Origin: a virus
Strand: one strand, 5' to 3'
DNA length: 64,000 bases
IMG/VR virus record: IMGVR_UViG_3300044710_000137
Coordinates: 1-64,000 of that record
Under the pieces are notes generated by a model. It did no database searches. It was not told the DNA's origin and worked only from the letters and a program-made list of their open reading frames with translations. Shown here one piece after another: positions 3,464-40,556 of the stretch (the stretch's first letter is position 1; each line of letters starts with the position of its first letter). Both the position numbers and the translations under genes were made by a program.

Positions 3464-4621
3464 ATGCCATCGATCAGGGGATTCGGACCGTCCAATCCGT
3501 TCGGCGGCTACACCCTTTCATGGCCTTCGGGCACGCTTGCGGCCGATCTGGCCATCATCTTCGTCTGCGCCAACTCCGGATCGGCGATTCCATTGCCGAG
3601 CGGCTGGACCAGCCGGTACGCCGTAAATAACGCAAACATCAGCGCCCTCTGTGCAACGAAGGTACTGAATTCCACGGATATCAGCGCGGGCAGCGTCTCC
3701 CTTTCGATCACCGCGGCTTGGGGCGGCGCTCAAATCGTCACCATCATTGGCGCTCCGGCGATCCGGGAGACGGACGGCGATTCGCAAAGTCCACCGGCCG
3801 GCGTTACCGCGGATTCCGTAACCACCTCGAGCGCGGTCCAAAACGGGGACGTGGCCATCAGCTTCGGCTTCGGCGGCGAAGGTGCGGGAAATTTCCCGTT
3901 TATCTATCCTCCGGGGTCTGTTCTCCAGTCCGCTGGCTACAATTACGCCTGCGCTTCCATGAGCGCCCAAACGATGTTTGGCGGCGTGGCCACTCTTAAC
4001 TGGACATTTCAGCCCAGCGTACCGGTTTACTCGGCTGTTGTAGCTGTGATTCTGGAAGCCTCGCTATCTCTCTCTCTGGCCGGTATGCCGACAGAGGGGT
4101 ATCTGGCTCCCTATACAGGCGTCATGGCGGGACTCGGCGGCACGGGTCCATACACGTACTCCGCCACCGGATTGCCGGCGGGTTTGACCCTGAATACCGC
4201 GACGGGGCAGGTCACGGGAACGCCCACTACAGTAGGCAGCGATCCCTACACCGCTACGGTGACCGACAGCCTGAGCAACACGGCTACGGCCACGGGCGCC
4301 ATCGTCATTTATGCGAGCCAGCTCACAGCCTCGCCCCCGACCCAATGCTTTACCGTGGACACTCCCTACACGAGCGGGTTCACGATATCGGGAGGCGCTT
4401 CGCCTTATTCGGTGACGATCCTGGATGGACAGTTGCCCCCCGGACTTTTGTTGGATGCGACGACAGGCGCCGTTACGGGAACGCCAACGTCGGGGGGGAT
4501 TTATTGCGCGTACATTCAAATTACAGACTCGTCCACGCCGCCGCAAACGCTTGACGATCTGCTCTGCATGATCGGCGGGAATCCATGCGGGGGATATATT
4601 AATACCGGGTGGACGGGATGA
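3464..4621 (+). CDS. Virion/tail protein with two Ig-like (He_PIG) repeats
   Basis: GLPAGLTLNTATGQVTGTPT and LPPGLLLDATTGAVTGTPT. Confidence 0.75.
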   Translation: MPSIRGFGPSNPFGGYTLSWPSGTLAADLAIIFVCANSGSAIPLPSGWTSRYAVNNANISALCATKVLNSTDISAGSVSLSITAAWGGAQIVTIIGAPAIRETDGDSQSPPAGVTADSVTTSSAVQNGDVAISFGFGGEGAGNFPFIYPPGSVLQSAGYNYACASMSAQTMFGGVATLNWTFQPSVPVYSAVVAVILEASLSLSLAGMPTEGYLAPYTGVMAGLGGTGPYTYSATGLPAGLTLNTATGQVTGTPTTVGSDPYTATVTDSLSNTATATGAIVIYASQLTASPPTQCFTVDTPYTSGFTISGGASPYSVTILDGQLPPGLLLDATTGAVTGTPTSGGIYCAYIQITDSSTPPQTLDDLLCMIGGNPCGGYINTGWTG

Positions 4622-5103
4622 CATTTGAGCGCACGCGGGATATGGATGTGGTCCGGGAGATCATTACCCACCCCCGAATCTGGCCAAATGTTATCGACGA
4701 CTTCTCCCCGCCGCGCGAAGAGTTTCAGCCCATCGCTTCGGAATCCATTCTGTACATTCTGCCGAAAGAAGACGAGCGGGTCCTTGGCGTAATCTGTTTC
4801 GCCATGCTGAGCCATATCGTTTTCGAGATCCATCCGGTGTTATTGCCGGAGACCTGGTGGGAGTTTGGAAAGGCTAAAGAAGCCACGCTGGGCGCGATGG
4901 ATTGGATCTGGAAGAACACGGATTGCCAGCGGATTGTGGGATATGTACCCCTGCTTAGGCATCGGACTAAATTAAGGTTTCCTCCTAAATTGGGGATGGT
5001 TCAGTACGGTGTTAATCCGAAGAGTTTCTTGAAGGGTGGGGTTCTTGTCGATCAGGTCATGTTTGGCTTAAGTAGACCGGAGAATATCAAAATCAGTGTT
5101 TGA
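4618..5103 (+). CDS. P22 gp14-like (DUF2824, GNAT-fold) head assembly protein
   Basis: MTFERTRDMDVVREIITHPRIW resembles gp14 N-terminus; syntenic upstream of ejection genes. Confidence 0.75.
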   Translation: MTFERTRDMDVVREIITHPRIWPNVIDDFSPPREEFQPIASESILYILPKEDERVLGVICFAMLSHIVFEIHPVLLPETWWEFGKAKEATLGAMDWIWKNTDCQRIVGYVPLLRHRTKLRFPPKLGMVQYGVNPKSFLKGGVLVDQVMFGLSRPENIKISV

Positions 5104-5137
5104 TGCCGCGCCGGTCAGTCCTGCCCGGCGCTGGTAG
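5097..5137 (-). repeat. Family A hairpin element
   Basis: CTACCA GC-GCCGG G CAG GA CTG A CCGGC-GC GGCATCAAAC. Confidence 0.9.
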
Positions 5138-5395: not shown

Positions 5396-5440
5396 CTACC
5401 AGCGCGGGACGCGGCTGCGGCACGCGCGGCAACAACAACT
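5396..5440 (+). repeat. Family A hairpin element
   Basis: CTACCA GC-GCGGG A CGC GGCT GCG G CACGC-GC GGCAACAAC. Confidence 0.9.
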
Positions 5441-5472
5441 GATTTTCTTCTTTCACTTCCAGGAATAATTCT

Positions 5473-6384
5473 ATGGCAGCAGGCGCACTCATCGGCGGAA
5501 TAGGCAGTTTAATCGGCGGAGCTATCGGTTCAAATGCCGCCTCAACCGCCGGTGGAATCCTCGGCAACGCAGGCAACACCGCTGCCACGAATATCACCGG
5601 CGCAGGACAGACAGCCATCGGTGGCTTAACAGCTCCTACTCAATCCGCCCAGCAAGGCGTTACGCCGTACACCCAAGCCGGAGCCCAGGGCATCAGCACG
5701 CTGGCCGCCGCGCTCGGTCCAAACGGATCGGCCACCAAAGCCCTAAGCACACCGTTCAGTTTCAATCCCAGCGATCTACAGAACACTCCCGGCTATCAAT
5801 TTCAATTGCAGCAAGGCCTTCAGGCTAACAAGAACGCCATGACCGCCGGGGGATTAGGTGGTTCGGGAGCAGCCGTCAAAGGCGCGAACAACTACGCCAC
5901 GGGTTTGGCGGGAACGTACTTCCAAAACGCCTACGCGAACGCAAACAACACCTACCAGGTGAACCGCCAGAACACGCTGTATCAACTTTCCGCCTTGCAA
6001 AACCTCGCGGGAACCGGCCTCCAGTCCTCGGAGTACTCCGGCAATGTCGGATTGCAATCGGCAACTCAAGCCGGAAACTGGGGCATCGGCTCGCAAGAAG
6101 CCGCCATGCAAGCTTACATGACAGGCCAGCAAGGCGTGGCCGCGGGCGTCATAGGCAGTGCGAATGCCTGGAACCAGGCTCTCGGCGGGGTAGCAAATAG
6201 CGCAAATAGCCTGTCCTCCTTGAACTCGATGTACGGAGGGGGCGGAGTATTCGGCGGTGGATCGGGAAGTATGGGCGGGGGATGGGGTAATGATATTGCT
6301 CCTGTGATGCCTGGAAGTGGAAGCTATTCTAGTTCAACTGGGATGGGGGGAAACCCTTGGAGCACGTATAGTGGGGCTTTCTAG
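5473..6384 (+). CDS. DNA ejection protein, P22 gp7-like
   Basis: Gly/Ala-rich N-terminus, TPGYQFQLQQG motif, position after gp14-like gene. Confidence 0.75.
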   Translation: MAAGALIGGIGSLIGGAIGSNAASTAGGILGNAGNTAATNITGAGQTAIGGLTAPTQSAQQGVTPYTQAGAQGISTLAAALGPNGSATKALSTPFSFNPSDLQNTPGYQFQLQQGLQANKNAMTAGGLGGSGAAVKGANNYATGLAGTYFQNAYANANNTYQVNRQNTLYQLSALQNLAGTGLQSSEYSGNVGLQSATQAGNWGIGSQEAAMQAYMTGQQGVAAGVIGSANAWNQALGGVANSANSLSSLNSMYGGGGVFGGGSGSMGGGWGNDIAPVMPGSGSYSSSTGMGGNPWSTYSGAF

Positions 6385-6716
6385 AAAAGCAAAATCATTA
6401 TAAGTTGGTGAGCCTCGGAAGCTAAGGCCGCCAGCCTCTCACTTGGCAAATGGGTGAGCGAGTCAGTGCCGCGCACCCTTGGCCGCAGGGTTCTGATGGA
6501 CACAGGTAGCCGCACCTTCTCCACGGCGACAGGCTCTCTGTGTTTGGCGATGAAGCGCGCGGACCGCAATTGTTCTTTGCATGCCCCTCTGGGCAGGTCC
6601 GTCAGCCACTCCATCAAATCGAGAAAGTTCTCGAAGTCGTGTCGCGAGAAGTCCCAACAATCGCGCAACTCCTGACGGGTGTAATCCCGCGTCAGATCGA
6701 CGGTCTTGATGGGCAC
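6381..6716 (-). CDS. Hypothetical cargo gene between two B elements (C-terminus runs through a B element)
   Basis: Antisense ORF between ejection genes. Confidence 0.5.
   Translation of the reverse strand: MPIKTVDLTRDYTRQELRDCWDFSRHDFENFLDLMEWLTDLPRGACKEQLRSARFIAKHREPVAVEKVRLPVSIRTLRPRVRGTDSLTHLPSERLAALASEAHQLIMILLF
6406..6490 (-). repeat. Family B element
   Basis: TGGTGAGCCTCGGAAGC..GGCAAATGGGTGAGCG..GCCGCGCACCCTTGGCCGCA. Confidence 0.85.
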
Positions 6717-6773
6717 AGCCCCACTTTACCATTCCTAGCCAAGTAGGAATCCAACTTTAGCGCTGATGTGACC

Positions 6774-6853
6774 ACCAGCGGAAGCGTCACGCCACCCAAG
6801 ACGCGCTCAGCTCCGAGAGTCACGCGCGATCACCAGCAATTCAAAGCTCACAA
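6774..6853 (+). repeat. Family B element (ACCAGCGGAA subtype)
   Basis: ACCAGCGGAA..GCTCAGCTCCG..AAAGCTCACAA; similar to 28761 copy. Confidence 0.7.
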
Positions 6854-6880
6854 GCTAAGCATCATTCAAAAGGACCCACA

Positions 6881-8902
6881 ATGGGCGGATACGCAACCAT
6901 CCCTCTATCAGGTATTGCTCCTCAAATTCAAACTCCAACTCAAGCTCTACAAGGAGCCGCAGGAGTAGGAAGCACAGTAGCGGATACCCGTCTGCGTCAG
7001 CAGCAGGCGGAACAAATCGCGTTACAGAACCAGCAATTGCAAATCCAGTTGCAAGGCCAGCAGGCCATGACGCAGGCCTGGAGAAACGTCAACGGCCTCG
7101 GTCCTGGAACATCCGATGGATCGCAGGCCCCCGTGACACCACAACAGACCCCGCCCGTTGCCGCGGCAGCACCCACAACTCCAGGGCAGCTATCCGGCGC
7201 GCCCGTGCCTTTATCCGCGGTACCGGGTCTCACCACGCCTGTACCGACCTCGATGGCGCCCTCCGGCGCAGCTCCGGCCGGCGCGATGCCGCTTTCCCAG
7301 GAAGCCTCGACCATGGGTCAAGGTGCTCCCGCTCCAGCCCTACAAGGCGCTCCCATGCAAGCCCCTCCTGGCCAGCCTCAGGGCGCTCAGGCCCCAGCAG
7401 CTCAACCCACAAAGCCCATCACCACGGGCGCTCCCATAATGGACCGCTGGTTCGCCGAAATGCAAAGGCTGGGCGTCCCTCCCCAGATGATTATGGCGGC
7501 CCAGACCAACACCGTCAACTACCTGAAGGACCGCGCCGCGCTCGACGCCGACACACTGAAAAATAGCGCCGCGCAACACGACATGGCCTCAGGTGCGTGG
7601 ACCTCGTTCGCACAGCAGCCCATCGACTATAAGGCGCAAAACGAACAGGATTTCGTGAACAACCAGGTGCGCCAGGGTAATATCACGGTGCAACAGGCGC
7701 GCAACTTGGGAAGCCTCTATTCTCCCAATATGACCCCGGAACAGGAAAAGGCGGCGGATCAAAAATTCAACGCGATCGCCAGCCTCTACCTAAGCGCAAG
7801 CCAATTGGACCAGCGTGCCGAGCGGATGGGCACCGCGGCCCGCGGCCAAGGTTATGCCGCCGAAGCCGCCCTCAAACAGAACCAGGCCGAAAACCAGCAG
7901 GCCGCGGCGACGTTCCCGAGCGATCCTACCCAATTACCGCAATACCTCAGCTCGCAACCCTCCCGGATTCAAACCATGCTGGCAGGCAAATCCTACGCGG
8001 ACGCCAACGCCATCATGCAGAGGATTGCCCTGCCGCCGGCGGATTACGCCAAGCAGGTTCAACAGCAGACCGCCGCCGATTGGGATCAAGCGCTGAAAGC
8101 CGCGAAGGCCGGTGAATCGCAATACAATACGGTTCTCCAAAAGCTCGCCATCACTAATCCCGACGTCCGCGCCAATCTCCCGGATACGTGGGATCCCAGT
8201 ACGCCCAAGAAGGTGCTCGATCTCGCATTGAATCCGGCGCAGAGTCAAGCGGCCGGCAATCAGGACGCCAACCGCGACCAGCGCGCCGATGCCGCTGCCG
8301 ATCGGGCGCAAGCCGCCGCAGAGCGTGCCGAACGCTCCGGCCAACCCACGCCGTACCAGATACAGCAGGAAACCCGCCAAGACCTCGCCGCTAAGAACAA
8401 AGCCGACGCCGCAGCACTGACGGCCCAGAACCTCAACCGGCAATACAGCATCGCGGCCGCCACGCCCTCCGGAGCCATCTACCGCGACCCTAAAAGCGGC
8501 GTTCAGCGGACCATGCCGCCAAACGACGACAAGGGAACCAATACAGTGAGAGAGGGATTACTGGATAGCGGCGAAACCGCACGTCAACAGGCCGAAGAAG
8601 CGCTGGCTACCTCTAATGAACTGCAAGCCAAGCATGGCTGGGGCAAGTACGGCGCGCCTCCGTCGCCCACTCCGCCTACTCCAACCACCCCTCCTACCCC
8701 TACTCCCACCCCAACAAAGCCGCCGCAGGGCAGCGCTGCTTCAGCAACAGGCACGCCAAGGCCTGGGGCGCAGCGCGGCGGTCCGCAAGGACAGAACGCC
8801 CCTCCAGCCAGCGTTATCGCCAAAGTAGCCGAGGGCCAAACTTTCTACGGCCCGGACGGTAAAGCCTGGAAGAAGGTCAACGGTAAAGCCGTCGCCCAAT
8901 AA
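6881..8902 (+). CDS. DNA ejection protein, P22 gp20-position
   Basis: 673 aa Gln/Ala/Pro-rich helical protein between gp7-like gene and giant gene; AAGGA SD. Confidence 0.65.
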   Translation: MGGYATIPLSGIAPQIQTPTQALQGAAGVGSTVADTRLRQQQAEQIALQNQQLQIQLQGQQAMTQAWRNVNGLGPGTSDGSQAPVTPQQTPPVAAAAPTTPGQLSGAPVPLSAVPGLTTPVPTSMAPSGAAPAGAMPLSQEASTMGQGAPAPALQGAPMQAPPGQPQGAQAPAAQPTKPITTGAPIMDRWFAEMQRLGVPPQMIMAAQTNTVNYLKDRAALDADTLKNSAAQHDMASGAWTSFAQQPIDYKAQNEQDFVNNQVRQGNITVQQARNLGSLYSPNMTPEQEKAADQKFNAIASLYLSASQLDQRAERMGTAARGQGYAAEAALKQNQAENQQAAATFPSDPTQLPQYLSSQPSRIQTMLAGKSYADANAIMQRIALPPADYAKQVQQQTAADWDQALKAAKAGESQYNTVLQKLAITNPDVRANLPDTWDPSTPKKVLDLALNPAQSQAAGNQDANRDQRADAAADRAQAAAERAERSGQPTPYQIQQETRQDLAAKNKADAAALTAQNLNRQYSIAAATPSGAIYRDPKSGVQRTMPPNDDKGTNTVREGLLDSGETARQQAEEALATSNELQAKHGWGKYGAPPSPTPPTPTTPPTPTPTPTKPPQGSAASATGTPRPGAQRGGPQGQNAPPASVIAKVAEGQTFYGPDGKAWKKVNGKAVAQ

Positions 8903-11900
8903 TGCCTGCCGAACTGGGCGAAGGCTGGACGCTCGACGATTCGGCGTCCACCCCTCCCGCCTCACCAACACCCCCAACGCGCGCCCCGTCTAAGCCCCCT
9001 GCCGATCTCGGCGGTGGCTGGACCTTGACGGCGCCAGCTGCCCGCGCATCGTCCGGAGATCTCGGCGGTGGGTGGAACCTCGCTCCTCCATGGCCCTCTA
9101 TTGACCAAGCCGTCAGGATGCCGAGCGCTGCGAGCATGCAAGCGTCGATGGAGCAGGCGGAGCGTGATGCGTCAGAGGAAGGGGGCGACCAGCCGGCCCC
9201 TCCAACACCTACAAATATCCCTGGTGGAATTGCTTCCATCCCTGGCGGAGCCTTGCCTGGAATGCCCTCGCCAGCGGTTCCAGGACTCACCACGCCATTT
9301 GTCGGACACGGCATCGGCGGCGACTATCCCATCCCCAGCGGGCAAATCGTACAGGAACCATTCGAAACTATTCCGGCGCTCGAAACTATTGGCCGTGGTG
9401 TCACCCGGATGGCGCAGGCCACCCCGACGCCGACACATGCCGCAAATCCGAAACAAACCGCATTGGGCTTGAGCGAAGTCCTGGGCGGCACGATGCAGGC
9501 AGTCGGCCCCCTGGCCATCCCTGCGGGACTCGTCGCAGCCCCCGCAGAAGCAGCCATCTCGCTGGGCGCCGGTATCGTCGCCCGAACTGCCACGCCTGCA
9601 TTGCTCAAGAAAGCCGGAGTAGCGCCCGAATATGCGGACCTGGCGGGCGACGTCGCCGGTCTCCTCGCGGGTTACGCCGCTGGGCATATCCGTCTATCGC
9701 CAGAGCAACAGAACCTCATTGAAGTCCTCCAGGGTAAGGATGCGCCAGGCGCGGGCATTGAAGATCCCCAGGTCAATCTTCTACGCAACATGGTGGACCG
9801 CGGCGGAACTGAAGGCGAACGAGCTGCAGCGCAAGGGGCTCTATTCCGCAAGTTCGGTATCAAGTACGGACCCGAGGATCTTTCCGGCACAGCTACGCCT
9901 GAACAATCCCCCACCCCACAAACTGCCCCTACCCAGGAACCAGCAACCGGCGCGGCCGCGACGGGTGCGGCACCAACATCTAATGTTTCTCCTGAAGTTT
10001 CAACATCTCCAGTAAAGTTTTCTAAAGGTGAAGTCTATACCAACACTCAAGGAGAAGCCGCCCATATTACCCAAGTTTCACCAGATGGAACAAAGATCAG
10101 TTTTGAATTAACAGTACCAGGAGTGATAAAACCCTTAAAGCTGGATTGGCCTGTTGGGAAATTTCAGATGAGGATGGGATTAACTCCTCGAGCTGAAGCC
10201 CAAGAAGAATCAGGTGTTAATGCCGCGCCGGCCGTCCCGTCCGTCGCTGGTACAACCGTTCCCCAGCCGGGCGCCGTTGCGGATTCCAACGCCGTACCGA
10301 CGCTGCAAACACCCCCGCCAACGCCCACACCTACCGCGAATTCCCAGCCGGTGCAGGCGCCCCCAGAAACCGCAGGCGCCATACCTCCAACTCAACAGAA
10401 TCGACAGGAAGCGCAGCCCCTACCGGCAATTACCGGGCAGGAAGGTGCCGCCCAGCTACCGCAAATTGCCACGGCGCCCGAGGGTCTACCAGCACCAGAC
10501 GCGGCTGCGGCTGGTGCGGCAGCAACACCTAAATTTGATTACGCCTCCACTCAAGTAAACCTTCCTTCTTCAATAGCTAACAGCGTCATCTACTTTGGCG
10601 AAACCATCCCTGCAAAGATCCTTGCACCTGAAGCTGGTCATTCTACTGCTGGAGAAACAGGTTCCACGGGTAGAGAAACAGAACCACACATCACCATCAA
10701 ATACGGCCTTCATGATGAAGATCCTTCCGCCGTTCAGGAAATTCTGAAGAACGAAGGCCCCATCACAGCCACCTTAGGCAAAGCCTCCATCTTCAACACC
10801 GACGACAGCGACGTTCTCAAAGTGGGCGTGGAATCCCCGGACCTCCAACGATTGAATGGCCTGGTTAGCCAACTGCCTCACACGGACACCCATCCGACTT
10901 ACGAACCCCACGTGACCATCGCTTACCTGAAAAAAGGCGAAGGGGCGAAGTACGACGGAAAGAGCATTCCAGGGGTCACCGGACAAACGGTATCATTTGA
11001 TGCTGTCCAGTTCTCGGACAAAAATGGGCAACATACTGCCATTCCGTTGGCAGGAAATGGACAAGAATCAGGTGTTGATGGCGCACCAGCCACAGCCGTG
11101 TCCGGTGCTGGTAGACCCTCCGGCGCAAGCCAGCAGTTGCCTCATAGCCTCACTGGAGCGAAGCCACGCTATAGCTACGGCGCACGCCAGTATGATTTGG
11201 AGTTCGCCGACGATCTCGACAAGGCAGCCTACATCACTGCGCAAGACAAGCGCTCGAAGCATGACGCCGACTACCTGAAATGGGCGATGGGCCAGACCGG
11301 CGGATCCGAAATGGACGTGCGCCAAGCTGGCGCGAACGTGCGCCATTTTATCAAGGACCTGGCCAAGGCGAATTCGGATGCCAGATCCGGCGAGACGCGC
11401 TTGGACATTCCGGCACTGGCGCGCAAGATCTTGTCGAAGCCCACCACGGCCGCTACGGTTGTACCAGCCGGGGGCGCGCAGCCGACACCGGCGGCAGCAA
11501 CATCAAATGCTTCGCCTGAGCTAACTCCATGGAGAGAGCTATTTGAAAGATACATTACCAATGGAGCCTCTGAAACTGAAGCAAAGATTCTCACCGAAAG
11601 AAGGCTAGGAAAAGAACCAGAAAGCCAGAAAGCACGAAAGCCAGAAATCGTTACCCCACCAGCCCCGTTGACTCCTCCCGTAAATGAGAGCATAGTAGAA
11701 CCGGGACTACCCAATGGAACCCCAAGTTCAGAAGCTCATCCAGAACTGGCAGCGCCAGAATCCGGAGGCGGTGAAGCGAATGCGCCAGAAGGGCAACCTG
11801 GAGAGCTTGGCCCTAGCAGCCTTGAACCGGCAGGCGGAAGTACTGTCGAGCCTACTCCAGAAGGGAACGCCCCATCTGGAAGCGCAGGAGCTGGCGAACG

Positions 11901-14900
11901 AGGAATTGCAGCTACCCCCCGGACCAGTGCAACCGGAGATAAACCCGCCGATTACCGCATAACCCCGGAAGACCACATCGGGGAAGGTTCGATCCGCCAA
12001 AAAGCCAACGACAACCTGGAAGCCATCCGCACCCTCAAGAAGATCGAGGCCGAAGGCCGCTACGCCACGCCCGAGGAGCAGAAAATCCTGGTCAAGTACG
12101 TAGGATGGGGCGGCATGCCGCAACCGTTCGCGGACTGGGGAATCCCTCGCGAGTGGCAGGGCGTACGCGCCGAAATGGATTCCTTAATGACAGCCGAGGA
12201 ATTCAAAAGTGCGCGCGCGTCTACCCCGAACGCCCACTACACATCGCCGCTGGTTATCTCGAAAATCTGGGATGCAGTTCGACGGCTGGGTCTCGGTGCG
12301 GAAGCGAGTTATCTCGAACCCGCCATGGGTGTCGGCCACTTCTACGGCCTGATGCCCGAGGACCTGTTGAACGGCGCGAGACGCACGGGCATCGAACTCG
12401 ATGCACTATCGGGCCGCATTTCGAAGCTACTTTACCCTGAAACCGATATCCACATCGCCGGGTTCGAAACCGTCCGGCTGCCGGGGAACTTCTTCGACGC
12501 CGCGGTGAGCAACGTCCCCTTCGGTAACTACGCGATCCACGATCCGGCATTCAAGCGCAATCCGGTGGCCACGCGCTCGATCCACGACTACTTCTTTGCC
12601 AAGGCCCTGGAGAAGGTGCGCCCGGGCGGCCTGGTGGCGTTCATCACTTCGAACTTCACGATGGACAAGCGCGATCCTTCGGTGCGGAAATACCTGGCGA
12701 GCCAGGCCGATCTGTTGGGAGCCATCCGCCTACCGAATTCCGCATTCAAGGGGAACGCCGGAACCGAAGTCACCACGGATGTGATTTTCCTCCGGAAGCG
12801 GGCGCCAGGGCAGAAGCCGGCGGCCGAACCGTGGACGGACCTGGCCGAGATCCAAGGCAACGTCGAGCGTCCGGACCGCTCCATGGGCAAGACTGCCATG
12901 GACGTGAACGAGTATTACGCCGCGCACCCGGAGATGATGCTGGGCGAAATGGGCCTACTGGGCACCATGTACGCCGATAAGAGCGCAGCCCTTACGGGCC
13001 AACTCACCCCCGAGAAGCTAGATGCGGCGATCGCCAGACTCCCGGAAGGCGCGATTCACCCTTGGGAAGCTCCGGTAGAACAGTCGGGGCCAGTGGCATT
13101 CGCCGACGCGAAGACTGTAAAGGACGGCGGCTACGCCATGAAGGACGGCCAATTGGTGGTCCGGCATGGCGACAGCCTTATTCCCGCGACCAACCCCGAC
13201 TGGCAGGTCAAACGCATCAAGGGCATGCTCGAAATCCGCAATGCCTTGCGCGAAGTGTTCCGGACCCAGATCGAAGACGCATCGGAGCCCGAGATCAAGA
13301 AAGCCATCCGCCACCTCAACACGGTCTACGACCATTTTGTGAAACAGAATGGCTATCTCTCGCAGACTCAGAATGTGCGCGCGTTTCACGGAGATCCGGA
13401 TGCGCCCGTCCTCCTGTCTCTCGAGAAGTGGGACCCGGAAGCCAAGAAGGCCGAGAAGACCCCTGTTTTCACCCAACGCACGGTAAGCGCAGCCAAGCGG
13501 ATCGACACGGCGGGATCGGCCAAGGAAGCCCTGGCGATTTCGCTCAACGAGAAAGGCCGTATCGATTGGGTCCGCATGCAGCAGTTGACCGGGCAGACGC
13601 CGGCGGAAATGCAGGCGGAGCTTGGACCGCTGATTTACCAGAACCCCAACGCGCGCCAGTGGCAGACCGCCGAAGAATACCTATCGGGCAACGTGCGCCA
13701 GAAGCTGGCCGAGGCCCGCGCCGCGGCGGGGCAAATCGGGATGCAGCCGCAATTCCAGCGCAACGTGGAAGCGCTCGAAGCGGTGCAGCCCAAGGATTTG
13801 CAGCCCGAAGATATCGAAGCCAAGATGGGCGCCAGTTGGATTCCGCGCCAGTACATCAGCCAGTTCGTCGGCGAGCTGCTGGGCGTCGATCCGCGCTACA
13901 TCCAGGTTTCGCATTCCGAAGCCCTGGCTACCTGGACCATGAAGGTGCAAGTTGGCAATTCGAATGTCGCCAACGTCAAGACCTACGGTACAGACCGGTT
14001 CCTCGCGTCCGATTTGATCGAGATGGCGCTGAACATGAGAAACCCCACCGCTTATGACGAAGTGGGCACCGGCGCCGACAAGAAGACCGTCATCAATGAA
14101 AAGGAAACCCTCGCCGCGCGCGAGATGCAGCAGCAGTTGAAAGACCGTTTCCGGGAGTGGGTTTGGCAGGATCCCGGCCGCGCCGAGACGCTGGGACGGC
14201 TCTATAACGACGAATTTAACTCTCTCAGGCTCCGAGAGTATGACGGTTCGCATTTGGAACTGCCAGGTATGTCCGCATCGATCAAGCTGCGGCCGCACCA
14301 GAAGAACGCCATCTGGCGCGTGGTGTCGAGCGGCGGCAACACATTACTCGCGCATGTGGTAGGAGCGGGAAAAACCTACGAAATGATTGGGGGCGCTATG
14401 GAATTGCGCCGGCTGGGCCTCGCCAAGAAGCCCGTGCTGGTCGTCCTCAAAAACCGTGTGGAACCCACGGGCGCGGAATTCCTGTCGATGTATCCCGGCG
14501 CGAACATCCTGGTGATGACGCCCGAGCAATTCACCGCGGCCAACCGCGCGAAGGTGATGGCGCGGATTGCCACGGGGAATTGGGACGCCGTGATCGTCTC
14601 CTACGAATCTTTTGAAAAGCTGCCCGTATCGGATGAGACTTTCAATTCCTACCTGAACGACCAGATCGACGACCTGGAGAATTACATCCGGGAGATGAAG
14701 GCGGACAACTCCGACGCCAAGCTCGTAAAACAGATGGAGAAGGCCAAGAAATCCCTTGAAGCGAAGCTACGCGGGAAGGCCGACCGCGAATCGAAGGATA
14801 CAGGCATCGGCTTCGAGGAGCTGGGCGTCGACTCGCTATTTGTGGACGAGGCCGATAACTTCAAAAACCTGTTCTTTCCCACGAAGATGACCCGAATCCG

Positions 14901-17900
14901 CGGGCTGCCCAACACCGAATCGAAGCGCGCCTTCGATATGTACATCAAGACCCAGACCATCGCCAAGCGCAATGGCGGCCGTGGAATCGTCTTCGCCACC
15001 GGAACTCCTATCGCCAACACCATGGCCGAAATGTGGACCATGCAGCGGTACCTGCAGCCGGATTATCTGCGGGAGCACGGGTTGCAGCACTTCGACGCTT
15101 GGGCGCAAACCTTCGGCGAAGTGGTGCCGACGCTCGAAGTCTCTCCGGACGCCTCAGGCTTCCGGCTAACCAACCGCTTTGCCAAGTTTGTGAACATCCC
15201 GGAACTGGTGTCCGGCTTCCGGTTGATGGCCGACGTGCAAACCGCGGACATGCTGAAGCTGCCCGTTCCCCGGCTCAAAGGTGGACAGCGCACCACGGTG
15301 CCCGCGCCGGCGAGCCCGGAGCAAACCGCATACCTGGCGAGCCTTGCGCAACGCGCCAAGGATATTCGCGAAGGAAGGGTAAAAGATCCGCGCATCGACA
15401 ACATGCTGAAGGTCTCGACGGATGGCCGAAAATCTGCCCTCGACATGCGCCTGGTGGACCGCGGGGCGGAAGACTTCCGCGATTCCAAGGTGAACAAGGT
15501 TGTGGACAAGGTGGTCGATATCTGGAAGGCTACCGCCAAGAACAACAGCGCGCAGCTCGTCTTCCTGGATTTCTCGAAGCCGGCCGAGCCGGGCGAAGGC
15601 CACAAGTTCAGCGTCTACGACGACATTAAGGCGAAACTGCTGGCCAGGGGTATTCCCGCCAAGCAAATCGCTTTCATCCACGATGCGGCGAGCACCGAGG
15701 AAGCCGCGCAATTATCCCACGACGTCAACGCCGGCCGTATCCGCGTGCTCATGGGCTCGACACAGAAGATGGGCGTCGGGCTTAACCTCCAGAAGCGCCT
15801 GATTGCATTGCATCACCTGGACGCGCCATGGCGCCCGCGCGATATCGAGCAGCGGGAAGGCCGCATTCTCAGACAGGGCAACGAGAACCCGGAAGTCCAG
15901 ATTTACCAATACGTCACCGAGCCCAGCTTCGACGCGAAGATGTGGGACACGCTGAAAACCAAGGCGCAGTTCATCGGCCAGGTCATGCGCGGCGAGGTCA
16001 CCGTGCGCACCGCCGACGACGTAGCGGACTCCGCCCTCACTTACGCGGAAGTCGCCGCCATCGCTTCCGGCAATCCGGCCATCCGGGAGAAGACCGTCAT
16101 CGACGCCGAGGTGCGCAAGCTGGACGCTATGCGATCCCGCCACGACAAGCAACAGGCCGATCTGAAGCGCGAAGCCGTCTCCCTTCCCCAGCGCATCCAG
16201 GCCCAAAGCCAGGCGGCCGCCAAATACCAGAAAGACATCGCGGTTCGCGACGCCTCTCCGAACCAGTTCACTGTGGGTAAACAGACGTTCACCGGAGACG
16301 ACGCGCGGAAGCGCGCCGCGGCAGCCATTGCCAAGGTCCTCGACACGGCCAAGGATTCCAGAGAGCCTATCAGCTTCGGTTCTTACCGCGGCTTCGCTCT
16401 CGAAACCCGCTATCGGCAACCGGGCATTACTACGAAAGGGATGGAGCCGCAACCCCTCCCGGACATCACCATCCGCGGCGCATCGAGCTATGGCGCGAAC
16501 ACTAACCCCGATGAACCACTGGGTACTCTCCAGAGCATCGAGATAGCCGTCCGCGGGATCGACGGCCACCTGAACGGCGCCGTCGCCAATATGACCGACG
16601 CGCAGCGCAAGCTGGCCGATACGAACGACCTTTTGGGGAAGCCGTTCGAACAGGAAGCCAAGCTCAAGACACTCCTCGATCGCCAGAGGGCTCTCGCTAA
16701 GGAATTGCAGACCGACGCCGCGGACCAGCAGGCAGCTTCGGCCAATTTGCCACAGCCCGAGGAAGAAGGAGAATCCGTAGCGGCAGCGGAAACCGACGCG
16801 GCATCAAAGAATACTTCCGAGGCCGGGTTTCTTAAATTTCACCGTCCAGGCCAAGCTCCTCCCATGCCGGAGAACCTCCGTAAATTCTCGGAAGATACCG
16901 GGGAAACACTTCACTGGGACGGCAGTAATTGGGTAGCCGACAGCCATGCCGAGACGGAGCAAGCCACAGCCGCTCAGAATCTCGCAGTTCAGGAAATGAG
17001 CCGGGCTTACCTGGATCCCTCCGATAAACGATTCGGCGAGCGCATCCGGACGTCCGTCACCGGCATGCGGGACGTATGGATCGCCCAAACCAATCAATTG
17101 CGCGGCCGTCTGCGCAAGCTGCTACCGAACTACGTGGACCGGGAAGCTTTGACCCTGATGCGGGAGTTCCGCAACCGGCCGGGCGAGATGCGCCAATTCC
17201 TGGAAGGCACGCACCCGTTCTACGGCGAGATGCGTGAGCTATCGCCCGAACTGGCGGCCGATGCCGCGGAGCGCATGGAAAAGCTGGAGCCCGTAGTGGA
17301 ACGTGCGGAAAATCCCACTCCGGAGATGATCGAAGCCGACCGGCAGTTGACGGAATACTTCACCGAGCACCTGGCCGAGGGCAAGGAATTGGGCTTCATC
17401 GACAGCGACATTCCAAACGAAGAGTACATCACCCATCTACTCCAACCGGACGAGAATGCTCCGAGCCGCATCAGCCGGACGGCCGCGCGCCTATTCCCCA
17501 CCCGGGCAGGTCTGGGCCCCAAGCGCTTCCAATTCGCCAAAGGGCGCATCTTCCCCACCGTGATGCACGGTATCGCGGCAGGTAAGGCGTACCACCTCGA
17601 TGCCACGGATGCCCTGACCATCTACGGTGAGAAGTGGGCCAATCAAGCCGCGCTGCGCACGTTTTTGAATGTGGCCAGGGATAACGCCATCGGCAAATGG
17701 GGCACGGACTCCGGTTTACGGAACGGAAAGATCCCGGCCAACTGGGTGGCCATGGCGCCGGAGAACCGTGCATTCCGTAATGAGGTCCCCTATATCAACG
17801 CCCAAGGCGAGGCTGACGTGGCGCATCAGAATTTCTATGTCGAGCCGAGCGTCAACGAGGCCATGCGGCCCATCTTCGATCCCGATTACACCAGCCGCAT

Positions 17901-19095
17901 TCCAGGCGCAAAAGAAGCCCGCTTGTACAACGCCTACATCAAAGCAGCCGAACTGGCCCTATCCCTCTTCCATCCAAAAGCTTTGACCCTGAGCGCGCTC
18001 GCGAGCGACGGCCCTTTCGATTTGATCGATTCCTGGGCATCCGATATGGACTCGCCCGAATTCGAACGCCTGGAGCGGGAGGCGATCCGCGCCGGCGCAC
18101 CCACTGCGATCCTGGGCAGGACTGTAGAGGCGTACAAAGCAGTACGGCCTAGCTCCCTGCCCACGAAAATGGATACTGTGCGGGGATTGCCGGGGATCAA
18201 GCAGGCGGAACAAGCCGCCGCGGCCATGTCGCATGCCACCTTCGACGTGCTGCAGCGCAAGTATAAAGTGCTGGGCTTCGCGCAGCATGATGCTGCCTGG
18301 ATGGCAAACCACCCGGACGCAACGCCCGAAGAGCACTTCGAGGCGCAGCGCCTGATTGCCAAATACATCAACGGCGTCTTCGGCGGCCTTCACTGGGAAA
18401 ATCTCGGCATACAGAGGATGGCCCTGACCATCGCCCGCCTGATCTTTCTGGCGCCGGACTGGACATTCTCGAACCTGGCCACTGGAAAATATACCTTTGA
18501 CGGAGGTCCGGGCGGCGATGCGGCGCGCAAGTTCTGGCTTGGGGCAATTTTCTGGTTCACGAGCCTTTCCCTCGCAACCAGTTTGCTGTTCAATTACAAC
18601 AAGAAATTCCGCGACGTGTTCAAGGAATGGGTCAAGGATCCGACACAGGTCTACGTTGGCGAGGACAATAAACGCCGGCCGCTGCACATGAATATGTTCT
18701 TTCCGGGAGCCACGGGCGATCTCGGGACCCTGTTGCACGCCGCATACAACTACGGCGTGCCGGTAGGAATGGCGCGCTACATCGCGAACAAGGAGAGCCC
18801 CCTGGCGAAAGCAGCCACGCACCAGATGGCCAACGAGGATGAATTGCGCCGCCCGATCGTGCGGAAGACCGGCACCATGGTTCACCACCAGCCGGTGACG
18901 TTCGCGCAAAATACCGCGGCAGGAGTCAAGCAGCTCGCCAGCGATGTAGTCCCGGTCCCATTCACCATCCCCACTATAGTCAGGATGCTGGAAGACAAAG
19001 ACCACAAATACACCGAAGCCCAGTATGCGGCCGTGGTGCTCAACGGACGGCCACCTCTACCATTGGAACCCGAAAAGAAACCACACCGGCGGTAA
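8902..19095 (+). CDS. Giant polyvalent ejection-position protein: 2H phosphoesterase + N6-adenine MTase + SNF2 helicase (DarB-like)
   Basis: PHIT/PHVT (10687, 10909); YLEPAMGVGHF and NVPF (12511); LRPHQ, AHVVGAGKT, VDEAD, WRPRDIEQREGRILRQGN. Confidence 0.9.
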   Translation: MPAELGEGWTLDDSASTPPASPTPPTRAPSKPPADLGGGWTLTAPAARASSGDLGGGWNLAPPWPSIDQAVRMPSAASMQASMEQAERDASEEGGDQPAPPTPTNIPGGIASIPGGALPGMPSPAVPGLTTPFVGHGIGGDYPIPSGQIVQEPFETIPALETIGRGVTRMAQATPTPTHAANPKQTALGLSEVLGGTMQAVGPLAIPAGLVAAPAEAAISLGAGIVARTATPALLKKAGVAPEYADLAGDVAGLLAGYAAGHIRLSPEQQNLIEVLQGKDAPGAGIEDPQVNLLRNMVDRGGTEGERAAAQGALFRKFGIKYGPEDLSGTATPEQSPTPQTAPTQEPATGAAATGAAPTSNVSPEVSTSPVKFSKGEVYTNTQGEAAHITQVSPDGTKISFELTVPGVIKPLKLDWPVGKFQMRMGLTPRAEAQEESGVNAAPAVPSVAGTTVPQPGAVADSNAVPTLQTPPPTPTPTANSQPVQAPPETAGAIPPTQQNRQEAQPLPAITGQEGAAQLPQIATAPEGLPAPDAAAAGAAATPKFDYASTQVNLPSSIANSVIYFGETIPAKILAPEAGHSTAGETGSTGRETEPHITIKYGLHDEDPSAVQEILKNEGPITATLGKASIFNTDDSDVLKVGVESPDLQRLNGLVSQLPHTDTHPTYEPHVTIAYLKKGEGAKYDGKSIPGVTGQTVSFDAVQFSDKNGQHTAIPLAGNGQESGVDGAPATAVSGAGRPSGASQQLPHSLTGAKPRYSYGARQYDLEFADDLDKAAYITAQDKRSKHDADYLKWAMGQTGGSEMDVRQAGANVRHFIKDLAKANSDARSGETRLDIPALARKILSKPTTAATVVPAGGAQPTPAAATSNASPELTPWRELFERYITNGASETEAKILTERRLGKEPESQKARKPEIVTPPAPLTPPVNESIVEPGLPNGTPSSEAHPELAAPESGGGEANAPEGQPGELGPSSLEPAGGSTVEPTPEGNAPSGSAGAGERGIAATPRTSATGDKPADYRITPEDHIGEGSIRQKANDNLEAIRTLKKIEAEGRYATPEEQKILVKYVGWGGMPQPFADWGIPREWQGVRAEMDSLMTAEEFKSARASTPNAHYTSPLVISKIWDAVRRLGLGAEASYLEPAMGVGHFYGLMPEDLLNGARRTGIELDALSGRISKLLYPETDIHIAGFETVRLPGNFFDAAVSNVPFGNYAIHDPAFKRNPVATRSIHDYFFAKALEKVRPGGLVAFITSNFTMDKRDPSVRKYLASQADLLGAIRLPNSAFKGNAGTEVTTDVIFLRKRAPGQKPAAEPWTDLAEIQGNVERPDRSMGKTAMDVNEYYAAHPEMMLGEMGLLGTMYADKSAALTGQLTPEKLDAAIARLPEGAIHPWEAPVEQSGPVAFADAKTVKDGGYAMKDGQLVVRHGDSLIPATNPDWQVKRIKGMLEIRNALREVFRTQIEDASEPEIKKAIRHLNTVYDHFVKQNGYLSQTQNVRAFHGDPDAPVLLSLEKWDPEAKKAEKTPVFTQRTVSAAKRIDTAGSAKEALAISLNEKGRIDWVRMQQLTGQTPAEMQAELGPLIYQNPNARQWQTAEEYLSGNVRQKLAEARAAAGQIGMQPQFQRNVEALEAVQPKDLQPEDIEAKMGASWIPRQYISQFVGELLGVDPRYIQVSHSEALATWTMKVQVGNSNVANVKTYGTDRFLASDLIEMALNMRNPTAYDEVGTGADKKTVINEKETLAAREMQQQLKDRFREWVWQDPGRAETLGRLYNDEFNSLRLREYDGSHLELPGMSASIKLRPHQKNAIWRVVSSGGNTLLAHVVGAGKTYEMIGGAMELRRLGLAKKPVLVVLKNRVEPTGAEFLSMYPGANILVMTPEQFTAANRAKVMARIATGNWDAVIVSYESFEKLPVSDETFNSYLNDQIDDLENYIREMKADNSDAKLVKQMEKAKKSLEAKLRGKADRESKDTGIGFEELGVDSLFVDEADNFKNLFFPTKMTRIRGLPNTESKRAFDMYIKTQTIAKRNGGRGIVFATGTPIANTMAEMWTMQRYLQPDYLREHGLQHFDAWAQTFGEVVPTLEVSPDASGFRLTNRFAKFVNIPELVSGFRLMADVQTADMLKLPVPRLKGGQRTTVPAPASPEQTAYLASLAQRAKDIREGRVKDPRIDNMLKVSTDGRKSALDMRLVDRGAEDFRDSKVNKVVDKVVDIWKATAKNNSAQLVFLDFSKPAEPGEGHKFSVYDDIKAKLLARGIPAKQIAFIHDAASTEEAAQLSHDVNAGRIRVLMGSTQKMGVGLNLQKRLIALHHLDAPWRPRDIEQREGRILRQGNENPEVQIYQYVTEPSFDAKMWDTLKTKAQFIGQVMRGEVTVRTADDVADSALTYAEVAAIASGNPAIREKTVIDAEVRKLDAMRSRHDKQQADLKREAVSLPQRIQAQSQAAAKYQKDIAVRDASPNQFTVGKQTFTGDDARKRAAAAIAKVLDTAKDSREPISFGSYRGFALETRYRQPGITTKGMEPQPLPDITIRGASSYGANTNPDEPLGTLQSIEIAVRGIDGHLNGAVANMTDAQRKLADTNDLLGKPFEQEAKLKTLLDRQRALAKELQTDAADQQAASANLPQPEEEGESVAAAETDAASKNTSEAGFLKFHRPGQAPPMPENLRKFSEDTGETLHWDGSNWVADSHAETEQATAAQNLAVQEMSRAYLDPSDKRFGERIRTSVTGMRDVWIAQTNQLRGRLRKLLPNYVDREALTLMREFRNRPGEMRQFLEGTHPFYGEMRELSPELAADAAERMEKLEPVVERAENPTPEMIEADRQLTEYFTEHLAEGKELGFIDSDIPNEEYITHLLQPDENAPSRISRTAARLFPTRAGLGPKRFQFAKGRIFPTVMHGIAAGKAYHLDATDALTIYGEKWANQAALRTFLNVARDNAIGKWGTDSGLRNGKIPANWVAMAPENRAFRNEVPYINAQGEADVAHQNFYVEPSVNEAMRPIFDPDYTSRIPGAKEARLYNAYIKAAELALSLFHPKALTLSALASDGPFDLIDSWASDMDSPEFERLEREAIRAGAPTAILGRTVEAYKAVRPSSLPTKMDTVRGLPGIKQAEQAAAAMSHATFDVLQRKYKVLGFAQHDAAWMANHPDATPEEHFEAQRLIAKYINGVFGGLHWENLGIQRMALTIARLIFLAPDWTFSNLATGKYTFDGGPGGDAARKFWLGAIFWFTSLSLATSLLFNYNKKFRDVFKEWVKDPTQVYVGEDNKRRPLHMNMFFPGATGDLGTLLHAAYNYGVPVGMARYIANKESPLAKAATHQMANEDELRRPIVRKTGTMVHHQPVTFAQNTAAGVKQLASDVVPVPFTIPTIVRMLEDKDHKYTEAQYAAVVLNGRPPLPLEPEKKPHRR
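9938..9978 (+). repeat. Family A hairpin element (in frame in giant gene)
   Basis: ACCA GC-AACCG G CGC GGCC GCG A CGGGT-GC GGCACCAAC. Confidence 0.9.
10214..10252 (-). repeat. Family A hairpin element (in giant gene)
   Basis: TACCA GC-GACGG A CG GGA CG G CCGGC-GC GGCATTAAC. Confidence 0.85.
10486..10528 (+). repeat. Family A hairpin element (in giant gene)
   Basis: CTACCA GC-ACCAG A CGC GGCT GCG G CTGGT-GC GGCAGCAAC. Confidence 0.9.
11071..11113 (-). repeat. Family A hairpin element (in giant gene)
   Basis: CTACCA GC-ACCGG A CAC GGCT GTG G CTGGT-GC GCCATCAAC. Confidence 0.9.
11461..11502 (+). repeat. Family A hairpin element (in giant gene)
   Basis: GTACCA GC-CGGGG GCGCGCAGCCGA CACCG-GC GGCAGCAAC. 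Confidence 0.85.
11714..11962 (+). CDS. Probable nested (+1 frame) gene, TnpV/DUF1896-like helical protein
   Basis: Amphipathic W..QNP....M...G.L...G...EA.E.A pattern overlapping a disordered linker just before the MTase. Confidence 0.55.
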   Translation: MEPQVQKLIQNWQRQNPEAVKRMRQKGNLESLALAALNRQAEVLSSLLQKGTPHLEAQELANEELQLPPGPVQPEINPPITA

Positions 19096-19507: not shown

Positions 19508-19593
19508 CCGGGCATGCGGCCAAAGGTGCGCAGCACCGAACCGCTCACCCATTTGCCCATCGCGCGCGGGCGCTAAAAGCCCGAAGCTCACCA
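19508..19593 (+). repeat. Family B element
   Basis: CGGGCATGCGG..GGTGC GCA GCACC..CGCTCACCCATTTGCCC..GGGC..GCCCGAAGCTCACCA. Confidence 0.9.
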
Positions 19594-19601
19594 GCAACTC
19601 A

Positions 19602-20429: not shown

Positions 20430-20459
20430 TTACCTTGGAGTATACCAAAGCCTATAAAT

Positions 20460-20545
20460 TGGTGAGCCTCGTAAGCTGAGGCCGCCAGCCGTTCACCGGT
20501 AAAACGGGTGGATATTTCTCTGCCGCGCATCCCCTCCCGCATCCT
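20460..20545 (-). repeat. Family B element
   Basis: TGGTGAGCCTCGTAAGCTGAGGCCGCCAGCCGTTCACC..TGCCGCGCA..CCGCAT. Confidence 0.85.
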
Positions 20546-20725
20546 CTACTTGCCGAACAGTTGCACTGACCTTACGCCGTAGCTGGAGTTTCCAATGGAC
20601 ATCAATAATCGCGAACTATCCGACTGGGACGATTGGGGAAGCGAAGACGACGCGCCCTGGTGGTTCGGCCCGTGTTTCAGTCCAGCCCACCGTGCGCCGT
20701 GGCAAAAGCGTTGCCCCTCGACGAC

Positions 20726-20812
20726 TCGGGCATGCGGTAGGAGTTGCCCGACACCCCAGCGTTCACCCATTGGCCTGACTTAACCCCGCAACAAACCGCC
20801 CGAAGCCCACCT
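20726..20812 (+). repeat. Family B element
   Basis: TCGGGCATGCGGTAGGAG..CGTTCACCCATTGGCC..GCCCGAAGCCCACC. Confidence 0.85.
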
Positions 20813-20860
20813 ATTTATAATTCCCTTCCCCTGTATTTCACTGTGTAAGTAGAACTGTGT

Positions 20861-40553: not shown

Positions 40554-40556
40554 AAT

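Follow-up and report, generated by a model that had tools for sequence, protein, structure and literature searches.

Repeat elements dispersed through the genome of a soil phage, represented by the single-contig IMG/VR virus record IMGVR_UViG_3300044710_000137 (84,545 bp, 59% G+C), are each bordered, on a side that never varies, by about 50–400 bases rich in A+T and poor in G. The elements form three families, designated here A, B and C, and the window in which they were studied is the first 64 kb of the record (64,000 nt; G+C 59.1%, observed-to-expected ratio (O/E) of CpG 1.14). Inside genes this flank, referred to below as the shadow, is made mainly by silent codon choices, and on its outward strand G is lost more than C, with a skew that flips with the orientation of the element. 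Comparison with orthologous sequences indicates that the shadow arose where it lies. It represents neither imported DNA of low G+C content nor the ordinary composition of gene boundaries. The data give an oriented, in-place cause that acts at the DNA level, and the one-sided shift points to an undescribed DNA-level requirement or process that is tied to the elements.

Base composition of the element flanks

Family A, as detected with nhmmer, has 28 copies in the genome, 26 of them in the window. Family B comprises 14 solid copies of about 90 nt each in the genome, whose strands were assigned so that the A+T-rich side is 3', and family C comprises nine copies, all on the + strand, which start like A and end like B; altogether there are 51 sites per 84.5 kb. 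When the 28 oriented A copies are superimposed, the G+C content of successive 25-nt bins on the 3' side is 0.38, 0.44, 0.47, and 0.53, and the CpG O/E in the same bins is 0.48, 0.56, 0.71, and 1.01, while on the 5' side the G+C content stays at 0.57–0.63. The asymmetry is also seen copy by copy, as all 28 A copies have a lower G+C content and fewer CG dinucleotides in the first 100 nt of the 3' side than in those of the 5' side (means of 0.454 vs. 0.589 and 3.7 vs. 9.4, respectively; Wilcoxon p ~4e-6). On the fixed side of B, the G+C content is lower in 14 of 14 copies and the CG count in 13 of 14; for C the corresponding numbers are 8 of 9 and 9 of 9. The lowest mean G+C content of 28 random 100-nt windows obtained in 100,000 draws was 0.537. 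Of the 42 low-G+C islands of the genome (100-nt windows below 45% G+C), 34 extend into a 3' flank, taken as no more than 250 nt, and the flanks so defined make up no more than 15% of the sequence. Among the remaining eight islands, two carry sigma-70-like promoters and one adjoins a weak B match.

These results agree with a preliminary description of this DNA, made by eye, according to which CG is depleted on one side of the A and B elements only. Its hand counts turned out to be exact: 2 CG in the 235 nt of 9979-10213 (G+C 0.41) as compared to 29 CG in the 240 nt of 12481-12720, 1 CG in the 125 nt of 6281-6405, 1 CG in the 110 nt of 63601-63710, and 4 CG in the 209 nt of 20251-20459; the region 11530-11605 contains 1 CG. 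Three of these regions (6281-6405, in the 3' end of gene 5473-6384; 20251-20459; and 63601-63710, in the 3' end of gene 62634-63677) are B shadows. Independence from the strand of the gene, which had also been proposed, is supported by the superimposed profile, by the comparison of individual copies, and by the third codon positions of the giant gene described below, all of which follow the oriented element. The proposed extent of 100–250 bp fits the long, intragenic copies but not the average, which is shorter: measured by G+C content, the shadow has a median length of 77 nt for A (range 15–225 nt) and 92 nt for B, with a mean of about 75–100 nt, and the intragenic shadows of the giant gene reach 205–225 nt.

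The A+T richness of gene boundaries, which had been considered as a possible trivial cause, is not the explanation. At boundaries assigned by a crude codon-usage gene caller and free of any element within 250 nt, the dip is shallow (G+C 0.54 at 57 predicted starts and 0.56–0.57 at 65 predicted ends, CpG O/E 0.95–1.16), and third codon positions dip beside all five intragenic A copies.

Silent codon positions in the DarB-like gene

The intragenic copies lie in a giant DarB-like open reading frame (ORF; 8902-19095, 3,397 codons), where hairpin and conserved flanks are read through in frame. Their positions are 9937-9990 (+; 70.9 bits in a covariance model), 10203-10253 (-; 62.1 bits), 10486-10539 (+; 68.7 bits), directly upstream of a 2H phosphoesterase domain, 11061-11114 (-; 65.5 bits), directly downstream of this domain, and 11461-11514 (+; 59.4 bits), for which a facing partner was not detected with filters off. 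The G+C content of third codon positions (GC3), calculated in 40-codon windows, has a gene mean of 0.69; values under 0.5 are restricted to the 3' sides of these five copies, except for four windows at 0.48 near 9.2, 9.8, and 16.7 kb. At the 5' sides of the five copies it is 0.57–0.78.

The region between the facing copies 9937 and 10253 has a GC3 of 0.22–0.30, and its shadow (9976-10220) encodes a small conserved domain with a homologue in the giant protein P0124; the G+C contents of the first, second, and third codon positions are 0.53, 0.45, and 0.26 in this shadow as compared to 0.63, 0.43, and 0.76 in the rest of the gene. Over the 2H domain the profile is U-shaped: GC3 is 0.30–0.40 after the copy at 10486, in a shadow that covers the first ~60 codons of the domain (10525-10700), rises to 0.62–0.70 in the centre, and drops to 0.38–0.42 before 11114, in a shadow over the last ~45 codons (10941-11078). 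The longest shadow (11500-11900) follows the copy at 11461 and forms a plateau at 0.30–0.40 over about 400 nt.

In the shadows of the DarB-like gene every amino acid moves to codons ending in A or T. The use of AGA and AGG for Arg, which the preliminary description had pointed out, concerns 6 of 8 Arg codons in the shadows vs. 8% of 155 in the rest of the gene. When the expectation takes codon position into account, the CpG O/E is 0.62 in the shadows vs. 1.13 in the rest of the gene, and GpC falls as well (0.84 vs. 1.22), with no excess of TpG (0.99 vs. 0.97) or CpA (0.98 vs. 0.92). Much of the CpG deficit consists of fewer Arg residues and the use of AGA or AGG for those that remain. Because GpC falls too, TpG and CpA are flat, and Arg accounts for so large a share, we read the loss of CpG as mostly a by-product of a general shift to A and T, that is, of the removal of G and C, and not as the decay of 5-methylcytosine.

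Strand asymmetry and predicted folding

On the strand that leaves A in the 5' to 3' direction, the first 100 nt contain a fraction of 0.13–0.23 G and 0.24–0.30 C (28 A copies pooled). At third codon positions of the giant ORF the ratio of G to C is 25:48 in the shadows of forward copies and 20:12 in those of reverse copies (p 0.01), and the skew follows orientation in four of the five individual shadows. Since the skew flips with the orientation of the element inside one mRNA, its cause lies in the DNA, and no reading at the RNA level, whether as a region of translation start or as a Rho site, can account for it. A Rho-utilisation (rut) site, an unstructured, C-rich and G-poor part of the transcript some 80 nt long, was considered separately: the outward strand has more C than G, but in the case of reverse copies this strand is not the transcript.

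The predicted folding energy per 100 nt is -19.1 kcal/mol on the 3' side vs. -29.8 kcal/mol on the 5' side, i.e., predicted structure is weaker by about 10 kcal/mol in the shadow.

Orthologous genes and related phages

Orthologues of the 2H domain are present in ten other giant phage proteins (40–64% identity), and five orthologous DNA segments were retrieved from IMG/VR; in three of these (L152, L153, and L154) an A copy was either not detected anywhere in the 12.5-kb locus or not found next to the domain. The GC3 profile of the orthologues without adjacent A copies is flat, including the part that corresponds to 10525-10700. At positions where the amino acid is identical to that of L152, codons ending in A or T in the phage studied here and in G or C in L152 outnumber the reverse case by 17:7 in the shadows, as compared to 7:13 in the centre of the domain. 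The direction of this difference between shadow and centre is the same for five of five orthologues (Fisher p 0.03, 0.05, 0.27, 0.11, and 0.02). The protein identity in the shadow parts of the domain (0.60 to L152) is like that of other orthologue pairs, which argues that the ends of the domain were not replaced by a diverged allele. A 12-residue loop of the domain (window ~10620-10665), with the lowest GC3 of the domain (0.13), is common to the proteins P0123 and P0128 and absent from the closest relatives P0124 and P0125.

A second complete phage from IMG/VR, G001 (87,751 bp), contains ten A copies. The G+C content is lower on the 3' side of nine of them (~0.52 vs. 0.62 averaged over the ten) and the same poverty in G is seen; in its giant gene, GC3 is 0.27–0.37 over ~180 nt beside one intragenic copy that lies in a different protein context. 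Linker peptides encoded by A occur in the giant proteins P0124 and P0125 and not in eight others, and the modules beside orthologous A-coded linkers differ between G001 and the phage studied here. Weak matches of the A model to G001 that are devoid of the hairpin part (L152 6724-6762 and 7806-7848; E 0.2 and 7.6), the second of which has a GC3 dip next to it (7771-8070), could be remnants of former A copies and are regarded as leads only.

Other relatives were recognized by their coat proteins. In a relative with 65% coat identity, a 3.1-kb JGI contig carries a true A copy (49.8 bits), which is followed by ~190 nt of A+T-rich sequence before the scaffold gene. The position upstream of the scaffold gene is occupied by C in the phage studied here (59914-60006, +), by A in the 65% relative (L124 237-291), and, as judged by eye, by a C-like element in a relative with 81% coat identity (L146 ~1150-1245), and in all three phages the element is followed by an A+T-rich leader.

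The hairpin of family A

Copies of A share an invariant CCAGC, an outer stem of 7 bp, a purine-purine mismatch, an inner stem of 3 bp, a loop of 4–5 nt, GGCA, and a conserved tail of ~18 nt. The hairpin is under structural constraint: 92.7% of the cells of the stem alignment are paired, with 54 double-sided changes, only three G-U pairs, and a score that was not reached in any of 500 shuffles, while slid controls give 22–52% pairing. The unpaired position (alignment columns 14 and 26, read by eye) is always G.A or A.G, which suggests that one strand is the working strand. Covariation is low in B, where 2 of 15 predicted pairs changed on both sides. A coding role of B was considered, as one frame ends in a stop codon in 10 of 14 copies, yet 5 of 14 contain internal stops (hand counts), and we do not regard B as a coding element. 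Searches of Rfam gave no family for A, B, or C, whether gathering or permissive thresholds were used. A generic A pattern found 43 loci in IMG/VR, all of them chance matches (nhmmer E >0.02), and a stricter variant had no matches in metagenome contigs and none in GTDB genomes.

Possible causes of the shadow

Our preferred reading, which we hold tentatively and at somewhat less than an even chance, is that the shadow is a selected entry zone of low stability, poor in structure and in G, on the ...CAAC or ...CCAA end of the element. The shadow starts at the conserved 3' motif, and the three families, which have related ends, carry it on the same end. This shared position, together with the re-formation of the flank in different protein contexts and the fact that functional A+T-rich flanks beside recognition elements are common, is the reason why selection of an entry zone is favoured. 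Under supercoiling, or upon replication or resection of the region, the A+T-rich flank would open first, which would let the G+C-rich inverted repeat of A fold the forward strand into the covarying hairpin, in which a G.A or A.G mismatch is invariant. The conserved 3' tail of 18 nt would remain unpaired together with the G-poor strand that follows it, and a phage or host protein would then bind the hairpin together with the single-stranded tail, or load there. Hairpin-guided nickases, primases, single-strand transposases, and recombinases act by means of a hairpin and a single-stranded tail. The positions of the elements at gene junctions and at boundaries of shuffled protein modules suggest recombination or module exchange. 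In a more far-reaching and rather doubtful version of this proposal, A, B, and C would provide each genome with about 51 polar sites of entry for a one-directional, hairpin-guided DNA transaction from the conserved ...CAAC end, possibly nicking, strand invasion, or priming linked to recombination or module exchange, and the shadow would be its evolutionary imprint in silent codon positions, including those of a conserved enzyme domain.

Several observations weigh against a selected entry zone. The folding z-scores relative to dinucleotide shuffles are about 0 on both strands, so that the low structure follows from composition alone. Beyond the first 18 nt, no k-mer or repeated motif is enriched in the shadows, and the span of shadow lengths from 15 to ~400 nt is not what a fixed functional platform predicts. 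The shadow is weaker in G001, where one orthologous intragenic copy has a GC3 of only 0.47–0.53. In PMC1851657, extensive opening of an A+T-rich flank as a route to cruciforms is presented as a low-salt mechanism in vitro. No hairpin-binding enzyme was identified among the 30 of ~117 predicted proteins that were searched against protein families. Composition alone, moreover, cannot separate selection from local mutation bias.

The last point concerns the strongest rival of the selected entry zone, a mutational footprint, which we consider possible though on the unlikely side. The element would be nicked, or would otherwise start a one-directional exposure of single-stranded DNA; if, for example, the outward strand were resected in the 5'-to-3' direction, beginning at a nick in the conserved 3' tail, its complement would be exposed as single-stranded DNA, and faster cytosine deamination and error-prone refilling would push silent sites to A and T, while selection at the protein level would keep the amino acids. 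Such a process would account for the polarity and in-place origin of the shadow, for the conservation of the protein under shifting silent sites, for the variable tract length, and for the lack of a motif or of any signal at the level of base arrangement. The preferential loss of G over C on the outward strand, flipping with orientation, is expected if the complementary strand is exposed, most of the four-fold codon shifts fit transitions (CCG to CCA, CCC to CCT, GTG to GTA, ACC to ACT), and the phage has a PD-(D/E)XK nuclease. Exposure of one strand is nevertheless insufficient, as T rises as much as A and C is strongly depleted too, and Gly goes mainly to GGA (0.50), which needs a change of C to A from the preferred GGC. 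The GC3 profiles are plateau-like with fairly sharp ends, not a smooth decay, and a raised mutation rate alone would leave the equilibrium composition as it is, so that a changed spectrum would be needed.

Block-like GC3 profiles could also be expected if the 3' side were mosaic cargo, i.e., DNA brought in or converted from a pool of lower G+C content by recombination at the element, with the shadow reflecting the donor's base composition, which we regard as improbable. The location of A at junctions of shuffled modules, with different modules beside the orthologous A-coded linkers of G001 and of the phage studied here, speaks for it, as do the exchange of A, C, or a C-like element at the scaffold-upstream locus and the 2H loop whose distribution does not follow the closest relatives. 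However, the shift in the 2H domain is confined to the two ends, which are as similar in protein as other orthologue pairs. Flanks of different A copies are dissimilar past the first 18 nt (20 nt of similarity in only 1 of 378 pairs), and the orientation-dependent skew of G and C is left unexplained by this reading.

It is still less probable that the flank is an unstructured translation-initiation region or leader and the hairpin an RNA insulator or processing site. A predicted start lies within 100 nt 3' of 16 of the 23 A copies outside the DarB-like gene (19 of 23 when three ORFs are added by hand) and of five of the nine C copies, as a role in gene expression would suggest. Nevertheless, the five intragenic copies, which have the longest shadows, have no in-frame start nearby; 10 of 14 B shadows lie inside the 3' ends of upstream genes; element-free starts dip only to the G+C content of 0.54 given above; and, in the region 22.5-41 kb, none of 12 promoter-like (sigma-70) and 18 intrinsic-terminator-like sites coincides with an A copy. 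Together with the skew that flips within one mRNA, this already contradicts gene expression as the sole cause.

Localised CpG methylation followed by deamination of 5-methylcytosine, one of the mechanisms put forward in the preliminary description, can hardly be the cause: the CpG O/E of 0.48–0.71 in the first 75 nt and the position-aware value of 0.62 fit it, but TpG and CpA are not raised, GpC falls too, all amino acids shift to A- or T-ending codons, much of the loss of CpG is due to Arg, and the sole methylase seen among the proteins searched is of the amino type, with the motif NVPF at residue 1204 of the giant protein, in which, as previously noted for NVPF, the motif is present and the cytosine-5 methylase motifs PCQ and ENV are not seen. 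Mosaic cargo, a pure expression effect, and the decay of methylated CpG are each contradicted by at least one test.

Location of the elements

Outside the DarB-like gene, the A copy at 5086-5137 (-) adjoins the + strand gene 4618-5103, which ends at its 3' edge, and the copy at 5396-5449 (+) has the start of the next gene 42 nt into its 3' flank. Further copies lie at 23930-23983 (+), 24948-25001 (+), which has the shortest shadow (15 nt), and 25425-25478 (+). The copy at 27219-27272 (-) is placed just past the start codon of the ORF at 27199, and the copies at 27837-27890 (+) and 27928-27981 (-) face each other across a gene junction; the latter, with ~40 nt of its flank, is 96% identical to the copy at 27198-27271, a duplication of element plus flank. 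They are followed by copies at 29889-29942 (+), 30358-30411 (-), just past the start of the ORF at 30350, 30635-30688 (+), at the end of this ORF (30350-30703), 30928-30982 (+), 32620-32673 (-), 32840-32893 (+), 33943-33993 (-), 36005-36058 (-), 36207-36260 (+), 38121-38171 (-), 40010-40063 (+), 49945-49996 (-), and 50339-50393 (+). All these copies were found with nhmmer.

Several small ORFs have one A copy right after the start codon and another at the end. Five small ORFs (27199, 27908, and 30350 on the + strand; ~32907 and 36270 on the - strand) share a Lys-rich N-terminal leader, followed by an A-encoded peptide K-S-V-V-D-A-A-G...P-A-G, and this combination could also serve as a tag at the protein level, e.g., for packaging.

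B elements of the window are found on the - strand at 1196-1287, 1849-1937, 6400-6489, 20454-20548, 22997-23088, 31377-31468, 53248-53340, 58880-58972, and 63706-63799, and on the + strand at 19508-19597 and 20725-20818. C elements, in addition to the one upstream of the scaffold gene, lie at 6769-6861, 28755-28848, 31981-32060, and 43657-43747 (all +), the last of which is the sole element of the three families without a drop in G+C content (0.56 on both sides). A fourth repeat consists of CCAGCCACC-like heptamer runs that end a few bases 5' of start codons, often right after a B element (647-708, 1299-1360, 1953-2014, 48016-48077, 54906-54942, and 58982-59043). Complementary GGTGGCTGG runs, its reverse form, occur at 40552-40604, 61174-61226, and 62525-62577, and GGTGGCTGG runs directly follow the stop codons of the scaffold and coat genes.

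Gene content of the phage

The phage originates from a soil metagenome; of two soil metagenome runs that contain the stretch, one is its probable source and the other has identical fragments at low depth, and no RNA data set was listed as containing it. Loose contig ends at A copies in the soil source run match flanks of other A copies and are read as branching of the assembly graph at repeats. The genome encodes a P22-type coat protein, a portal protein, and a scaffold protein. The best match of the coat protein among GenBank phages is 45%; a single-protein scan of IMG/VR with the coat protein gave nothing and an alignment scan at most 50%, and coat homologues of 87% and 81% identity (P0002 and P0003) are encoded on contigs of 53 and 59 kb. 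Among GenBank phages no close DNA was found, only methylase-helicase pieces of 65–70% identity in podophages of Ralstonia and Burkholderia.

The giant DarB-like protein matches the 2H phosphoesterase domain (Pfam 2_5_RNA_ligase2, E 1.5e-8) and helicase families, and its homologues in JGI records carry the name N12 class adenine-specific DNA methylase. The 2H domain (window 10525-11078) of this giant, injected-type protein also has a weak, sub-threshold Pfam match to the anti-CBASS protein Acb1 (E 2e-4).

The only relevant family matches among the searched proteins are the PD-(D/E)XK nuclease, a 226-aa tyrosine recombinase, and a winged-helix protein family. The nuclease gene (window 26259-27062; Pfam E 5e-25) is located immediately upstream of the region in which A copies are most densely clustered, and the 205-aa protein encoded beside it has no family match. 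A 580-aa early protein has homologues with winged-helix domains of the Crp or MarR type and no nuclease or primase signature, and PHROGs gave nothing for 9 of 10 early proteins. The tyrosine recombinase (Phage_integrase family) is encoded, together with an HTH_17 protein, between A copies in the window region 37575-39633; the gene of the latter is preceded by a repeated GACAGTCGGACA-like motif (38050-38135), and a sigma-70-like promoter is located at 38896-38924. Divergent sigma-70-like promoters (TTGACA-18-TATACT and TTGACG-18-TACAAT) lie at 23602-23702, between the leftward and rightward blocks of early genes. A tRNA over 115 nt at 23479-23593 (-) is supported by Rfam (50.5 bits), with ARAGORN silent, and may be intron-bearing or aberrant; a second tRNA, at 40711-40783 (+), is an ARAGORN call for which this program gives no anticodon.

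Implications

Dispersed hairpin repeats are known in bacteria and phages and are usually treated as intergenic. The family described here leaves a measurable polar footprint that extends 100–400 nt into coding DNA and overrides codon preference with the protein intact, and this footprint offers a handle, accessible by sequence only, on the sites and the direction of the elements' action. A selected footprint would define a flank that the elements require, and a mutational one would be a rare example, in a phage genome, of a mutation process bound to specific sites and to one direction. Should the elements indeed be entry sites, the phage would represent a system whose dispersed structured elements reshape the composition of the coding DNA around them. 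As the elements lie at the borders between shuffled domains of giant injected anti-defence proteins, including the 2H phosphoesterase, they may also bear on how such proteins are assembled.

Comparison with known systems

A one-sided composition shift beside repeats is unmentioned in the neighbouring literature that was consulted, for which no search aimed at it was made and whose coverage was not thorough. The described systems nearest to family A are the PeSL cassettes of T4-type phages and the REP, BIME, and REPIN palindromes, and A lacks defining features of both. According to PMC4122927 and PMC2839356, PeSL cassettes are, like A, short conserved stem-loop cassettes that lie among variable small genes, beside gene starts, and at joints of otherwise unrelated sequences between related phages. 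Such a location at junctions of non-homologous segments is found for A beside the orthologous A-coded linkers of G001, where the modules differ, and at the scaffold-upstream locus of three relatives. However, PeSL is described in PMC4122927 as an intergenic terminator with an early sigma-70-type promoter, neither of which is seen at the A copies in 22.5-41 kb. In contrast to PeSL as portrayed there (PMC4122927), A occurs in both orientations, is read through in frame, and has a long one-sided shift of silent sites, which the abstract of that paper does not mention.

The REP-type palindromes, mobilised by RAYT transposases (PMC3733652), resemble A in being imperfect G+C-rich palindromes of 30–40 nt with a conserved tag at one end, in having many copies in both orientations and frequent inverted pairs, and in the mismatch of the stem. 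REPs are extragenic, unlike A, of which five copies are in frame in the ORF 8902-19095 and many others overlap gene termini. The REP tag next to the stem is GTAG or CGTC, while that of A is CCAGC. In about half of the 26 aligned A copies (read by eye) CCAGC is preceded by CTAC, so that GTAG falls on the opposite strand and at the wrong end of the stem. No RAYT (Y1 transposase) was found among the 30 of ~117 predicted proteins searched.

Rickettsia palindromic elements are repeated palindromes of 100–150 bp that lie in frame inside genes of a bacterial genome and are translated as extra peptide segments. The A copies of the DarB-like gene share with them the tolerance of palindromic repeats inside ORFs and their translation, and differ in belonging to a phage; we know of no report of a polar composition shadow for the Rickettsia elements. 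In the attC sites of integron gene cassettes, structure is conserved over sequence, and a folded single strand is recognized strand-specifically through its unpaired bases. Conserved structure, unpaired bases, and the association with cassettes are likewise seen in A. Its flanks, however, are not complementary (by eye), unlike the inverse-core and core sites RYYYAAC and GTTRRRY that close the attC hairpin, and the cassettes are bracketed here by inverted copies, while attC cassettes are arrayed in one direction. The integron integrase of IntI type has an extra domain; the tyrosine recombinase of this phage has only 226 residues.

A+T-rich unwinding regions lie beside the elements of origins and nick sites, such as oriT, single-strand initiation signals, and the lambda origin inside gene O. 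Origins of this kind are present at one or few sites per replicon, with A+T-rich regions of tens of bp, while here 51 sites are spread over 84.5 kb with flanks of up to 400 nt. The lambda origin, like the intragenic A copies, lies inside an ORF and encodes a linker. In both cases a recognition element is accompanied on one side by a low-stability, A+T-rich region, which in A has a G+C content of 0.38–0.47 in the first 75 nt and predicted structure weaker by ~10 kcal/mol per 100 nt.

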